64,000 nt of DNA. It comes from Eledone cirrhosa. Lineage: Eukaryota. Each line of letters opens with the position of its first letter. Position 1 is the stretch's first letter. Positions 3,180-61,662 of this stretch are shown one piece after another. The stretch spans positions 68,758,001 to 68,822,000 of the forward strand of contig OZ024743.1 of assembly GCA_964016885.1 (NCBI GenBank), read 5' to 3'. The position numbers and the translations under genes are program-made. The notes under the pieces were generated by a model. That model made no database searches. It saw nothing but the letters and a program-made list of their open reading frames with translations, and was not told where the DNA came from.

Positions 3180-3244
3180 ATTTTATTATATATATTTCAG
3201 ACGGTACTGTGCTTTTTTTTCAGTACATCCTCATCAGATAATAT
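3180..3244 (-). ncRNA. Minimal type I hammerhead ribozyme (family A)
   Basis: Reverse complement: tat CTGATGA ggatgtactg..cagtaccgtct GAAA tatata TA ataaaat. Confidence 0.7.
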
Positions 3245-6145: not shown

Positions 6146-6875
6146 GAAAGACGTAAAATAAGAACATTTTAAAAATTAAAAATTAACTTACTTACTAACT
6201 ACTACCATGAACCATAGCAGTACATTTTGGCAAGTTTCGCTCAACAAATAATTTGGAGATAAATATAGAGAATTAGTATATCTACCAACATATGTATACA
6301 GATGTATACCCATGCTAGCAGATGTTATATCTTAGTACCTTTGTGGTTCTATGCAGAGGGATGCAGATCAATTATAGGAAAGACGTAAAATAAGAGAATT
6401 TTAAAAATTAAAAATTAACTTACTAAAATTTTCACTCCAACTAATTAGTTTCCCTAAGGGAATAAATATAGTTAATAGAATTTGCCACTGACCAAGTAGG
6501 CAGTGAATTTTTCAATGCCCTGGAATTTAGTCCCCGCTAGCTTTATTCCATCCACTGAATTATTATTTTTATATGGGTTCCTAGTGTCCGCGCATTGCCT
6601 GGGAACTTAGCTGAGAATAGACTCCCTGATGACGTAAGGACTTCTCTATAGTTACATTACGTAACTATATTTATTCCCTTAGAGAAACTAATTAGTTGGA
6701 GTGAACATTTTAGTAAGTTAATTTTTAATTTTTATAAATGTTCTTATTTTACGTCTTTCATATAATTGTTCTGCATCCCCCTGCATAGAACCACAAATGT
6801 ACTAGGACATAACATATATATCTGCTAGCATGGGTATACATCTGTATACACATGTTGGTAGATATACTAATTCTC
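6146..6875. mobile_element. Fold-back copy of the 550-nt retrozyme-like family (diverged subfamily of 45381-47297)
   Basis: Shared aaagacgtaaaataaga..., agtgtccgcgcattgcctgg and ctgagaatagactccctgatgacg; direct repeat at 6146/6378, then an inversion at ~6475; (TA)n on both sides. Confidence 0.8.
6621..6702 (+). ncRNA. Type I HHR with extended two-helix stem II
   Basis: actcc CTGATGA c gtaagg..tatagtt..aactata..ccttag a GAAA ctaattag TT ggagt. Confidence 0.8.
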
Positions 6876-24488: not shown

Positions 24489-24559
24489 TATTTTATTATG
24501 CGCATTTCAAAAACAAATATCATCATGCAATAATATTTGTGTTTTCATCAGATAAAATA
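24489..24559 (-). ncRNA. Minimal type I HHR (tgcgca family)
   Basis: Reverse complement: tattttat CTGATGA aaacacaaatat..atatttgttttt GAAA tgcgca TA ataaaata. Confidence 0.85.
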
Positions 24560-26332
24560 GGAAGACATGATATGAAGGTTAAAAAACACTTGTGGATAGT
24601 GCAGTTTTAAATCAACATATGAGAAGTAGTTTTAGATTGATGTGTGATATTGAGAAATGAATATTTTTTTTGAGGGGGGGGGATGAAAAAGATGAGGAGA
24701 TGAGAGTAAAAAGTGGAGAGGGAGGAGTATAATGGGGAAGGATGAGATAGGAGGAGAGATGGGTGATAGAGAGAGAGAGATAGCTTTTATAACTGAGAAA
24801 AATATATTGTTTTACATAGAGAGGTTGAATAACCGTTGGAAGATAATGTATAAATTAAAAGAATTTGAAAATTAACGAAGAGAAAAATAATGTAAAGTTA
24901 AGGTTTGTATATTGAATGGTTTAATAATATGTGCGATGAAAAGAAATTGTTAATATGTATTGAGAATAATATTTAGGGGTTTAATAATATGTGCGATGGA
25001 AAGAAAATGTTAATATGTATTAAGAATAATATTTGAGGGTTTAATAATATGTGCGATGGAAAGAAAATGTTAATATGTATTAAGAATAATATTTAAGGGT
25101 TTAATAATATGTGCGATGGAAAGAAAATGTTGATATGTATTATTGAAAAGAACAACAAGTAATGTAAGTAAGGATATATTGTGAGATGAGCATGAGTAAG
25201 TTAGATGAAAGGGAGAAAAAAATAATGAATTGAGGTTGAATAATCTAACGTCAAAAAATGTTTATGTTTACGAAGGATTTTTACAAGGTGATATGAAGTA
25301 AGAATGTATTGTATTGTGTAATAATTGTTTCTATGTTAGGCAACAGTGAGAACAGGTACAGATTAGGGGTTAGACATTAAAAGAAAAAGAGAAGAAAGGG
25401 AAAATGAAGAAAGGGAAGTGATAAATAGGAGTGATATAGAATGAGTAACAAGTATTATATAATGTATAATAAATAACTTTGAAATAAGGTAGAAAGATGG
25501 GTATATTTTTAAAGAAGTATATATATATATATGTGCCTTTGAGAAAAAGATTCTAAATTGATAAAGTTTTGGATATTAGCTGTATACTTTGTGGAATGTT
25601 TTGTGGAATTTATGCAAGCAGAGAGAAAACCAGTCAGTGCGTCTATTTATTATAGAATCTAAATTAGATATAATGGTAAGTTTTTCGTTTAGACAGAGAT
25701 GGCAAATCTTGGATAGAGAACTATTCAGAAGAACCTTTTTTCCAAAAGATGCTATATTTAATATTTTTGTCTTTCAAGGACCATATGAGTTCTGAGAGAG
25801 CCGTGTTGGTTCTTTCAATCGCACATATTATTAAACCCTTAAATATTATTCTTAATACATATTAACATTTTCTTTCCATCGCACATATTATTAAACCCTT
25901 AAATATTATTCTTAATATATATTAACATTTTCTTTTCATCGCACATATTATTAAACCCTTCAATATACAAACCTTAACTTTACATTATTTTTCTCTTCGT
26001 TAATTTTCAAATTCTTTTAATTTATACATTATCTTCCAACGGTTTTTCAACCTCTCTATGTAAAACAATATATTTTTCTCAGTTATAAAAGCTATCTCTC
26101 TCTCTCTATCACCCATCTCTCCTCCTATCTCATCCTTCCTCATTATACTCCTCCTTCTCAACTTTTTACTCTCATCTCCTCCTCTTTTTCATCCTTTCCC
26201 CCCCACCCCCCTCAAAAAAAAAAAATATATATATTTTTCACAATATCACACATCAATCTAAAACTACTTCTCATATGTTGATTTAAAACTGCACTATCCA
26301 CAAGTGTTTTTAACCTTCATATCATGTCTTCC

Positions 26333-42935: not shown

Positions 42936-44760
42936 TCGGTTTAGTAGATAAGTGCAGCTATAACTATACAGAAAAGAAGTGCTGATAGTACATCCCTCTG
43001 CTCAACTGCCTTTAAGATGTCTATAGAGCGTATAGTTCCAAGTCTGTTTTGATATATGCTGTTGAGTTGGTGTAAGTTTCTTTCAATATGTTGATGTACT
43101 TTTGTGTTAATTGATGTCTTGATTAAGAGTTTCCACAAGCTGGGTAGTTTCACGTTGTCAACAGCTTTTGTGAAATCAATGAAGGTGATGTGCACAGGGT
43201 TGTTGAATTCTATTGAATTCTCAATGATTTGTTCAATAGATAGGATCTGCACAATGGTGACTCTTCCAGGTTGATACGCAGCTTGTGTTTCAGGAAATGA
43301 GGTGTAAAGTTCTGACTTCACTCGTGCTGCAATGATACTCATAAAAACCTTGTAAACCTGACTCAGTTAGCTGAACGGACGATTGTTCCCACAATCGTCT
43401 GCTACCTTTTTTGTAGAGTGCAACTATCAATGCCTTCTTTAACATGTCTGGACTTTTTCCTGTAGAGATAATACAGTTAAAGAGGTGTTGAAGTGCTTTG
43501 ATAACTGGCCCACCTCCAGCTTTGATGAATTCTGAGTACATGATGTCCAGTCCAGGGCTCGCTTCAAATTTTTGATGACATGATATATCTCGCTAGTTAA
43601 GATAGATGGAATGGCATCTGATGTCGAATCGTGAATGGTTGTTTGTTCTGAGTTGCTGAAGTGCAGTTCTTTATAGAATTTAGCCCAGCGTTCAACGATA
43701 TCATCTTTGAAAGTAAGGATAGTATCGTTTGAATCTTTAATACCCCAAATAAGATTTCTTGGTTTAGTCTTTAGTTTCTTCAGAACAACATGGTATAACC
43801 TGTTGGGTGCTAGGTTATTCAGCTCCTCAATGTTGTTGTACATTTGCTTAAGTTTGTCTGATTCAATGAATTTTTTGGATTCAGCCTTTGCTATTCTATA
43901 TTGGGTTGGTTTGTGGACACATTCGATTCTGATTCAATGTTTTTCAGATATTGCTTTGTTTGTTTGTTATGACGTCCACTATGGGATGGAAAGGCTTTCC
44001 TTAGGTAAAATCATCTGGCCATCATGAGTAACTCTAGAACTGATATGTAAGAATATCTGAATATTCTGGGCAAACATTCGCTGGAGGCTGGCATACACAT
44101 CAACATCTCCAAAACAAAGTGTATGACAACTGATAAAAACAATGCCAATCTCCACCTCACAATCTACAACATGCACATTGCTCAAGTTACAGAGTTTATA
44201 TATCTTGGCCACAAACTATCATTAAACAACAATGGAATGGTTGCTTTGTTGCACAATATCGAATCGCTGTAGGTTGGGCAGCTTTGAACAAGTAAAAGAA
44301 AGTACTAACATCAAAACGAGTATCCTTTCATTTTCAAGGCTAAGATCTTTGATACTTACATTCTACCAGTTGTGTTATATGGTCTTGTTAATTGGACGAC
44401 AAGATCACTTCAGATGCTCTCTACATTCCAGAGCCACAACATGAGATTTATGACTGGCAAGCCGCTCAGTGACCATATCTGTATCAAACTTAGTGACCAT
44501 ATCTGCATCAAACTTAGCCCAATTACATCAATTGTCAAGTCAAGAGTACTCAAAGTATACGGTCATATATAAAGATTAACTCGTGGTGGGAGTAGGTTAT
44601 GCTTGGAAGGAAGGTTGGCTGGTAAGTGAAGCAGAGGCCAGCAGCCAAAACGATGGCTTGGCAATGTCAATTTATGGACTGCACTTGATATTTGCTACAT
44701 GAACTCTGCTGCTGGTGATCGAAATTTGTTAATGCGCAGTTTGCAACTGGTGGACGTTAG
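42936..44760. mobile_element. RTE-clade LINE pseudogene with a 5' inversion (minus 43990->42936, plus 44000->44760)
   Basis: Minus: ALIVALYKKG, ETQAAYQPGR, ITFIDFTKAVDNV, VEQRDVLSALLF. Plus: GIHINISKTKCM, VTEFIYLGH, VLKVYGHI, RGQQPKRW. Confidence 0.85.
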
Positions 44761-45380: not shown

Positions 45381-45447
45381 AAAGACGTAAAATAAGAAAA
45401 TACTTTTTTAAAAAATTTTAAAAAATTTTTTACTTACTTAAATTTTC

Positions 45448-45529
45448 ACTCCAACTAATTAGTTTCTGCAATGGGATGAAGACAGTTACGTAATCCAACT
45501 GTCAAGAATTCATTGCGTCATCAGGGAGT
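45448..45529 (-). ncRNA. Type I HHR with extended stem II; the tandem partner at 46001-46082 has GAAA->CAAA
   Basis: Reverse complement: actcc CTGATGA c gcaatg..gacagtt..aactgtc..cattgc a GAAA ctaattag TT ggagt. Confidence 0.85.
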
Positions 45530-46478
45530 CTATTCTCAGCTGAGTCTCCAGGCAATGCGCGGACACTGGCGGCTCATATAAAAATAATAATAATTCGGTA
45601 GATAGAACAGCTAGCGAGGACTGGATTCCATGTACTGAAATTGGCACTGCTTCTAGTCAAATGGCCGATTCTAAAGAATCAATCACGTGACACAGAGGCT
45701 AGTTAGAAGGAATCAGATGGTAAGATGACTGACGCCTACTAACACCCCCAAAAATTTAGAAGTGGTTTTGGCAGGTTTGCTCGACAAATCAGTGATTTGG
45801 AGATAAATATAGATAATTTAATATATCAACTAGCATAAGCGCACAGGTGCACGTCCATGCCAGCAAATACACAGGTTATGTCATAGTACCTAGGTGATTC
45901 AATGCAGGAGGATGCAGAACAATAATATAAAAGACGTAAAATAAGAAAATATTTTTTTAAAAAAAATTTTTAATTTTTTTACTTACTTACTTAAATTTTC
46001 ACTCCAACTAATTAGTTTGTGCAATGGGATAAAGACAGTTACGTAATCAAACTGTCGAGAATTCATTGCGTCATCAGGGAGTCTATTCTCAGCTGAGTCT
46101 CCAGGCAATGCGCGGACACTGGCGGCTCATATAAAAATAATAATAATTCGGTAGATAGAACAGCTAGCAAGGACTGGATTCCATGTACTGAAATTCTCAC
46201 TGCTTCTAGTCAAATGGCCGATTCTAAAGAATCAATCACGTGACACAGAGGCTAGTTAGAAGGAATGGGATGGTAAGATGACTGACGCCTACTAACACCC
46301 CAAAAAATTTAGATGTGTCACGTGATTGATTCTTTAGAATCGGCCATTTGACTAGAAGCAGTGAGAATTTCAGTACATGGAATCCAGTCCTCGCTAGCTG
46401 TTCTATCTACCGAATTATTATTATTTTTATATGAGCCGCCAGTGTCCGCGCATTGCCTGGAGACTCAGCTGAGAATAG

Positions 46479-46560
46479 ACTCCCTGATGACGCAATGAAT
46501 TCTCGACAGTTGGATTACGTAACTGTCTTTATCCCATTGCAGAAACTAATTAGTTGGAGT
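46479..46560 (+). ncRNA. Type I HHR with extended stem II; the tandem partner at 47029-47110 has CCGATGA
   Basis: actcc CTGATGA c gcaatg aattctc gacagtt ggattacgt aactgtc tttatcc cattgc a GAAA ctaattag TT ggagt. Confidence 0.85.
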
Positions 46561-47294
46561 GAAAATTTAAGTAAGTAAAAAAATTTTTTAAAATTTTTTT
46601 TAAAAATATTTTCTTATTTTACGTCTTTTATATTATTGTTCTGCATCCTCCTGCATTGAACCACCTAGGTACTATGACATAACCTGTGTATTTGCTGGCA
46701 TGGACGTGCACCTGTGCGCTTATGCTAGTTGATATATTAAATTATCTATATTTATCTCCAAATTACTGATTTGTCGAGCAAACCTGCCAAAACCACTTCT
46801 AAATTTTTTGGGGTGTTAGTAAGCGTCAGTCATCTTACCATCCCATTCCTTCTAACTAGCCTCTGTGTCACGTGATTGATTCTTTAGAATCGGCCATTTG
46901 ACTAGAAGCAGTGAGAATTTCAGTACATGGAATCCAGTCCTCGCTAGCTGTTCTATCTAGCGAATTATTATTATTTTTATATGAGCCGCCAGTGTCCGCG
47001 CATTGCCTGGAGACTCAGCTGAGAATAGACTCCCCGATGACGCAATGAATTCTTGACAGTTGGATTACGTAACTGTCTTTATCCCATTGCAGAAACTAAT
47101 TAGTTGGACTGAAAATTTAAGTAAGTAAAAAAATTAAAAAAAATTTTTTTTTTAAATATTTTCTTATTTTACGTCTTTTATATTATTGTTCTGCATCCTC
47201 CTGCATTGAACCACCTAGGTACTATGACATAACCTGTGTACTTGCTGGCATGGACGTGCACCTGTGCGCTTATGCTAGTTGATATATTAAATTA

Positions 47295-47575
<281 letters not shown>

Positions 47576-58126: not shown

Positions 58127-58192
58127 TTTTATTATGCGCATTTCGAAAACAACATCATCCTGCGACAATAATTGTGTCCTCATCAGATAAAA
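58127..58192 (-). ncRNA. Minimal type I HHR (divergent tgcgca-family copy, element 58000-58255)
   Basis: Reverse complement: ttttat CTGATGA ggacacaatt..gttgttttc GAAA tgcgca TA ataaaa. Confidence 0.75.
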
Positions 58193-61159: not shown

Positions 61160-61662
61160 GCTATATTTAAACATGTAGAGGAGATGGGCTCCGCCATATT
61201 TAAACATGTAGAGGAGATGGGTTCCACCATATTTAAACATGTAGAGGAGATGGTCTCCGCCATATTTAAACATGTAGAGGAGATGGGCTCCGCCATATTT
61301 AAACATGTAGAGGAGATGGGTTCCACCATATTTAAACATGTAGAGGAGATGGTCTCCGCCATATTTAAACATGTAGAGGAGATGGGCTCTGCCATATTTA
61401 AACATGTAGAGGAGATGGGTTCCACCATATTTAAACATGTAGAGGAGATGGGCTCCGCCATATTTAAACATGTAGAGGAGATGGGCTCTGCCATATTTAA
61501 ACATGTAGAGGAGATGGGTTCCACCATATTTAAACATGTAGAGTAGATGGGCTCCGCCATATTTAAACATGTAGAGGAGATGGGCTCCGCCATATTTAAA
61601 CATGTTGAGGAGATGGGCTCCGCCATATTTAAACATGTAGAGGAGATGGGTACCACGATATT
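61160..61662. repeat. 33-bp minisatellite, ~15 copies (atatttaaacatgtagaggagatgggctccgcc)
   Basis: Read directly from the sequence; 11-aa periodicity in the ORF track. Confidence 0.95.

Follow-up and report, generated by a model that had tools for sequence, protein, structure and literature searches.

The window analysed here is a 64,000-nucleotide (64-kb) stretch of the microsatellite-rich, 3.0-Gb genome of Eledone cirrhosa. It contains copies of a short repeat whose units each carry a hammerhead motif. The first insertion considered has the following features, those of the hammerhead lying on the + strand:

6146-6870: whole insertion, with truncated inverted - strand pieces head-to-head with a + strand partial unit
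~6146 (short) and ~6870 (long): insertion ends, set between dinucleotide microsatellites
6605-6609 (+): 5' strand of an outer stem I helix, predicted partner 6714-6718 (90.9% of cells paired, no double change)
6613-6617 (+): purine strand on the 5' side of stem I, likely forming a pseudoknot with 6642-6646
6621-6625 (+): 5' strand of stem I, paired with 6698-6702
6626-6633 (+): segment between stem I and proximal stem II, placed by sequence; a feature described in the available text of PMC4209133
6634-6639 (+): 5' strand of proximal stem II, paired with 6677-6682 (6634.6682 broken here)
6640-6646 (+): 5' strand of the stem II internal loop, of which 6642-6646 is conserved and complementary to 6613-6617
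6647-6669 (+): distal hairpin of stem II (6647-6655 pairs with 6661-6669), whose sequence and length vary
6670-6676 (+): 3' strand of the stem II internal loop, conserved with two fixed changes, no partner found
6683-6697 (+): additional A without a partner, second catalytic box, stem III palindrome (6688-6695) and NUH site
after 6697 (+): predicted cut, at the NUH site

The comparison copy lies in an array of a second subfamily:

45381-47300: array of two - and two + units, head-to-head, with a period of 550 nt
45524 (-), 46077 (-), 46484 (+) and 47034 (+): hammerheads of the array, short end left and long end right
46471-46560 (+): hammerhead compared with the copy at 6621; its pseudoknot would join 46471-46475 with 46500-46504
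46492-46497 with 46535-46540 (+): its proximal helix
46505-46511 with 46521-46527 (+): its distal helix

Judged by its sequence, the motif is a hammerhead of type I and Penelope style, with self-cleavage predicted. Both catalytic boxes, three stems, an open stem I and an NUH site are present, together with the traits typical of Penelope-like elements (PLEs): an extra nucleotide separating position 9 from 10.1, a long helix II, a short helix I and a small palindromic helix III. The G10.1-C11.1 pair directly before the second box is found in 34 of 35 aligned rows and is broken in the copy at 6621; it is followed in all 35 rows by an extra A before the second catalytic box, which is non-canonical. 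An Rfam scan of the 64-kb window at the gathering threshold returned no hammerhead match. The palindromic stem III is unstable as a lone hairpin and forms a self-dimer of -9.2 kcal/mol; since it pairs with itself but is unstable alone, dimeric action is predicted. A search for sister families with another stem III, in which the first stem III base was changed, gave only 54 scattered matches. At L095, L104, L147 and related loci from several subfamilies, the distal helix is capped by a UNCG-type tetraloop closed by C-G, a typical RNA-stabilizing motif. The stretch 6712-6722, which follows closely on stem I and is conserved along with its equivalents in all subfamilies, resembles a tandem 5' splice donor; it is compatible with the predicted outer stem I helix as well. 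In PLEs, introns may occur close to the hammerhead.

The exact pattern of core plus stem III matched the genome 4,975 times and the control not at all, and four exact patterns covering more subfamilies gave at least 9,408 genome matches in sum, with none in the controls. Parsing of 228 fetched loci and the window yielded 405 hits, corresponding to 317 distinct copies of the more than 9,400; the patterns used to sample loci demand an intact core, and core conservation within this sample is therefore partly by construction. The units are arranged head-to-tail with a length of 489-571 nt (50 natural periods), each with a type I hammerhead, and are ORF-less, the longest stop-free frame being 115 aa. 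The unit is structured, with a circular MFE of -128 versus -105 +/- 6 for shuffles.

Neighbours on opposite strands are head-to-head in 59 of 62 cases. The element stops in two zones, ~50-80 and 160-200 nt downstream of the predicted cut, and one long and one short arm were found in 39 of 60 inverted locus entries, i.e. in all 39 that could be resolved, with 21 unresolved and no long-long or short-short case (where fetches overlapped, merging was complete at the level of copies but not of loci). A microsatellite lies at most 30 nt away at 347 of 485 block ends. The inverted truncated copy, the two-end signature and the microsatellite target match the insertion anatomy of PLEs (PMC8557442) and two-site priming (PMC11167929), as far as the available texts of these papers describe them. 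The element is likely a non-LTR retrozyme, or non-autonomous PLE, mobilized by PLE proteins.

Among the fetched loci (317 of >9,400 copies sampled), no unit ran into an ORF, unlike PLE-type hammerheads in the pLTR of an RT/GIY-YIG ORF, and a rare autonomous parent may exist beyond the 317 copies. A 3.7-kb same-strand spacing in L134, considered for such a parent, was without an ORF, and a DNA search with the downstream stretch returned near-identical copies only. As for a helper PLE, PLE-like ORFs near L003, L004, L005 and L033 are separated from the unit by microsatellites and none is linked to it; Pfam gave a sub-threshold GIY-YIG match for L033 only. The open PLE-like pieces are L005:3-866 (+), L003:1865-2723 (+), L003:2-1213 (-), L004:2554-3129 (+) and L033:2175-3026 (-). 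In those of L005 and L003, which are possible helpers, a linker rich in cysteine precedes a GIY-YIG-like region (Neptune/Nematis-like, by eye). Among three contig sets compared, those of another organism (organism C, from another study) carry related units with 80-95% likeness, with thin cover in organism B, and the repeat family probably reaches beyond the Eledone cirrhosa genome.

According to the original prediction, which was made from the window only, double substitutions preserve stem II between the copies at 6621 and 46479. Both copies are indeed found there and four double substitutions keep the pairing: the 12 aligned stem II pairs show four double changes and one single change, and 9 of 92 other columns differ. 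The family-typical copies L007 and L031 differ by four doubles and no singles in stem II pairs, and in 7 of 92 other columns. The chance of eight changes falling as four whole pairs of 13 is 4.6e-4, even before restored pairing is required; this figure is post hoc, and the weight is therefore carried by the tests on other subfamilies. The proximal helix gtaagg/ccttag is paired at five of its six positions, but 6634/6682 is G.G in the copy at 6621, a rare variant of a first proximal pair that is G-C in 34 of 35 aligned rows. The same variant occurs in locus L026 and in the truncated inverted copy of the insertion itself. The copy at 6621 is probably impaired, because this first pair is broken. 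Stem I, core and palindrome were described as unchanged, which is correct for the two window copies but not across subfamilies, where stem I has one double change and position 7 and the extra base after position 9 also vary.

The larger alignment of 35 rows combined 20 automatic cluster medoids, 13 hand-added diverse loci and the two window copies; the row of L039 is shifted by one column, an effect that works against structure. Covariation in a larger alignment was the test named by the original prediction, and it is present: RNAalifold, given no structure, recovered the two stem II helices; 6 of its 14 pairs show doubles, and at one position all four Watson-Crick pairs occur. The named structure had 93.8% of 1,077 cells paired, compared with 87.4% when shuffled and 40-50% when slid. 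It exceeded the shuffles in cells paired, double-change cells and covariation score (0/500 each) as well as all slid controls; two event-like measures, counting pairs or types, showed no gain over shuffles (44/500 and 233/500). The distal helix alone was 84.7% paired versus 72.2% shuffled and 21-59% slid, and on the two event-like measures it did not beat the shuffles (40/500 and 154/500). Other hairpins of the unit covary too.

As the rows are related, a tree was made from the flanks only, using 189 copies with enough upstream sequence and 184 parsed tips, with some nodes weakly supported. On this tree, the subfamily-fixed changes in the proximal helix were five doubles and one break, the latter in a subfamily with an inserted base. 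Distal pairs 2-4 underwent 14 fixed events, of which three were doubles and 11 were to or from G.U, with none broken and no A.C. Private changes in the proximal helix numbered 24 singles and no doubles among 942 pair observations; a parsimony tally gave 38 singles and one double. The first distal pair is loose, being broken in 4 of 17 amplified types. The occurrence of sense-strand G.U 11 times and of A.C never argues for selection on the sense RNA and not for DNA or cDNA hairpin repair. Along a subfamily ladder of ~1.4 substitutions per site of amplified lineage, the core, the helices and the putative contact described below were kept intact. Selection on RNA structure with the distal helix included, as had been proposed, holds in both the 35-row alignment and the flank tree.

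The sequence of the distal helix and its length (4 to about 10 bp) vary freely; the internal loop that it closes does not. A pattern with a shortened stem II gave 96 matches, 45 of which (by eye) represent the shortest amplified subfamily, in which the loop and a distal helix of 4 bp are retained, the remainder being assorted deletions at one or a few places. The 5' strand of the loop, 6642-6646, is complementary over 5 bp to 6613-6617 upstream of stem I. This complementarity was noted first, and the subfamilies with both middle positions changed were found afterwards. In the 35 rows, 98.3% of the cells of this loop-loop helix are paired and one pair shows a double change. Genome-wide, the middle pair is concordant as G-C in 8,588 and as A-U in 614 copies, compared with at most 79 of A.C type, an upper bound that includes variable-gap artefacts (L192 keeps the normal upstream strand) and 10 copies from one local duplication, and 127 of G.U type. 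The discordant classes amount to ~1-1.5%; most of these copies are scattered, and those with G.U recur in the sister background. All A-U carriers fall into a single clade (n=16, bootstrap 100) in a tree where discordant copies, fetched on purpose, are over-represented; the swap is therefore a single event and the 2x2 counts are not independent. The chance of a concordant swap is roughly 0.003-0.008, and parsimony on the flank tree resolved the swap as single steps over poorly supported nodes. The ten sites of the helix accumulated 2-3 fixed changes versus ~14 expected at the flank rate. Pseudoknot-stabilized hammerheads are recognized by at least four Watson-Crick pairs and covariation, and both are seen here, the latter as one independent double change.

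By sequence, the pseudoknot strands are antiparallel with stems I and II side by side, each 8 nt from the core. The original prediction guessed at a tertiary contact of the distal helix; a contact is supported, but its likely site is the internal loop closed by the distal helix rather than the helix itself. Two other partners for the stem II loop, the strand 3' of stem I and the second catalytic box, were rejected, as neither tracks the loop change. Breaks of the first distal pair could lengthen the pseudoknot by one pair, which fits some subfamilies; the idea was dropped because the position takes all four bases in one subfamily and L203 breaks both. The 3' strand of the loop is as conserved as the 5' strand, leaving room for base triples or protein binding. 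It also leaves room for an RT-binding role of stem II, the other guess originally made for the distal helix, which is without direct support: the insertion ends, ~50-80 and 160-200 nt downstream of the cleavage site, adjoin other covarying hairpins away from stem II. A covarying hairpin at ~46694-46730 (alignment columns 239-256) lies just before the long insertion end and is a better candidate for RT binding or start than stem II.

The data probably describe an ORF-less retrozyme of ~550 nt with a hammerhead whose distal helix closes a loop that pairs upstream of stem I, thereby bracing stems I and II. Multimeric transcripts would fold such that the pseudoknot strands pre-organize the core. 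Both strands lie 5' of the cut, on the enzyme side, and their pairing could precede arrival of the substrate strand; the pseudoknot is predicted to keep the two stems in a side-by-side arrangement. Palindromic stem III would then pair between neighbouring units in a double hammerhead, and cleavage would release RNA of unit length or oligomers. Acting in trans, an RT/GIY-YIG protein from a PLE may nick both strands of an AT microsatellite, and priming at two fixed sites downstream of the ribozyme would give insertions that are head-to-head and have a long end and a short end. Amplification would have continued only in lineages whose fold was intact. A wider reading is offered tentatively, with doubt slightly outweighing belief: the internal stem II loop and the stem I flank form a kissing contact whose two strands both belong to the enzyme half, the core is thereby folded in advance for cleavage as a dimer, a working hammerhead is needed for PLE-driven mobilization, and the end signature ties retrozyme insertion to PLE priming.

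The same conservation may be explained without a brace. The helices could present the pyrimidine-rich loop to a protein, either the PLE RT or a host chaperone, with the upstream co-change hitchhiking. The conserved, partnerless 3' strand of the loop and the single pseudoknot event are in keeping with such a platform, as is the Anolis PLE hammerhead, which, in the available text of PMC11167929, cleaves only with protein. However, protein binding predicts neither the matched G-C to A-U swap nor the G.U-type excess in the sister background, and the insertion ends and another covarying hairpin are well downstream. We consider this explanation unlikely; it is compatible with pseudoknot bracing, and the two can coexist. 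The purine strand might instead toggle, pairing either within an extended stem I or with the stem II loop, the loop pairing marking an inactive or post-cleavage state that could, for example, favour circularization or protect the RT template. The competing helices have similar predicted energies (-6.9 versus -4.0 and -6.8 kcal/mol), single-sequence folding of the copy at 6621 favours the extended stem I, and an insertion template must hold uncut hammerheads near its 3' end. Nevertheless, the geometry fits an activating contact of stem I with stem II, a pseudoknot role shown in PMC3088659 (available text), and the competing extended helix has no double change in its outer part and carries a mismatch in several subfamilies, making a switch rather improbable.

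Compensation might also arise at the DNA level, as a by-product of template switching or hairpin-templated correction in the genome or cDNA, with the RNA unselected. These elements are rich in inverted rearrangements, and parsimony identified a few private doubles (one proximal, three distal), possibly from small unsampled subfamilies. Private changes are, however, overwhelmingly single, and the internal loops remain unpaired rather than perfected. Moreover, the one-sided changes of the inner distal pairs gave sense-strand G.U 11 times and A.C 0 times, and cDNA hairpins would favour the opposite. The strand asymmetry has already largely refuted DNA-level compensation, which we regard as very improbable.

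Retrozymes as PLE derivatives, covarying PLE hammerheads and bracing by pseudoknots are already known; what is new is a distal helix that closes an internal loop complementary to the strand upstream of stem I. The comparisons below are limited to what the available parts of the cited works describe. Non-LTR retrozymes (Cervera and de la Pena 2020, PMC7229834; Li, Clavereau and Pollet 2026, bioRxiv 10.64898/2026.07.22.740005) are likewise ORF-less head-to-tail units with a type I hammerhead each, present in thousands of copies, and share a structured unit and a proposed PLE dependence with the Eledone repeat. The Eledone unit of 489-571 nt compares with ~170-400 nt in PMC7229834, and the 51-972 bp range of the preprint covers it. 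The Eledone hammerhead is PLE-style with a greatly extended stem II, whereas non-LTR retrozymes have the canonical loop-loop form with a 4-bp stem II. The inverted copy and two-end signature of PLEs are seen directly in the Eledone insertions, whereas the preprint gives co-occurrence and pLTR homology. PLE pLTR hammerheads (Cervera and de la Pena 2014, PMC4209133) share the extra base between 9 and 10.1, G10.1-C11.1 (here in 34 of 35 rows), a short stem I, a long helix II and a helix III that is a small palindrome, predicted to act as a dimer, and the families described there are already noted to be full of covariation; for the Eledone repeat, in contrast, no ORF-bearing copy was found among those sampled.

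Pseudoknot-stabilized hammerheads (Perreault et al. 2011, PMC3088659) share a helix that links the periphery of stems I and II; their 4-6-bp pseudoknot occurs in ~40% of representatives and is needed for fast cleavage. By the text of that paper, it joins a terminal loop with a tail, whereas the Eledone pseudoknot joins an internal loop of stem II with the stem I flank in an animal retroelement. The PK hammerhead (Zhan et al. 2024, PMC11300833) also has a pseudoknot, which there replaces helix II and here is peripheral with helix II intact. In texts including PMC6765202, PMC10085705 and PMC11300833, we found no description of an internal-loop contact in a PLE or retrozyme hammerhead; alignments in figures and supplements may hold similar motifs, and Lunse et al. 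2017, as cited in PMC6765202, may describe long stem II variants.

The Anolis Poseidon PLE (Frangieh et al. 2024, PMC11167929) and PLE anatomy in general (Craig et al. 2021, PMC8557442) resemble what is seen or predicted for the Eledone repeat: both strands of AT-rich DNA are cut, reverse transcription starts at two sites downstream of the hammerhead and leaves a tail at one end, and there are an inverted 5'-truncated copy, a microsatellite bias and non-autonomous head-to-tail derivatives (MRC1). The tail is ~110-120 nt in the Eledone repeat versus 30-40 bp in PLEs, and the Eledone element encodes no protein. Cleavage was dispensable for insertion in vitro in the one reconstituted system (PMC11167929), eight of nine retrozyme dimers did not cleave in the preprint (10.64898/2026.07.22.740005), and PLE hammerheads cleave poorly in vitro (PMC4209133, PMC11167929, PMC8557442).

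With its >9,400 copies, the family amounts to mutagenesis carried out by nature: the fold persists in amplified lineages, dead copies undergo random decay, and single and double variants with which to test rescue already exist. The family points to a tertiary architecture missed by standard hammerhead descriptors and Rfam, and provides insertion-level evidence for a retrozyme-like repeat using PLE machinery. If the wider reading is true, the subfamily ladder is in vivo evidence that PLE-driven mobilization requires a working hammerhead, and the one-long, one-short ends tie retrozyme insertion directly to two-site priming by PLEs.

PLE-derived ends occur at high density in the 64-kb window. Microsatellite-flanked palindromes at 24551 (-), 26341 (+), 31092 (-), 31227 (+) and 58186 (-) hold another hammerhead-like family, whose stem II is long and whose palindromic stem III differs from that of the first, the copy at 58186 differing by apparent paired changes (by eye). 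More hammerhead-like families, mostly as inverted pairs, are located at 3237, 4103, 7128, 13596, 27081, 36203, 37766, 42783, 47816, 50788, 51617, 59037 and 59194. The stretch 44000-44700 resembles, by eye, a decayed C-terminal fragment of a LINE reverse transcriptase. A 60-bp array lies within a large palindrome at 24674-26201, and a 33-bp tandem array of 14.8 copies occupies 61163-61650.
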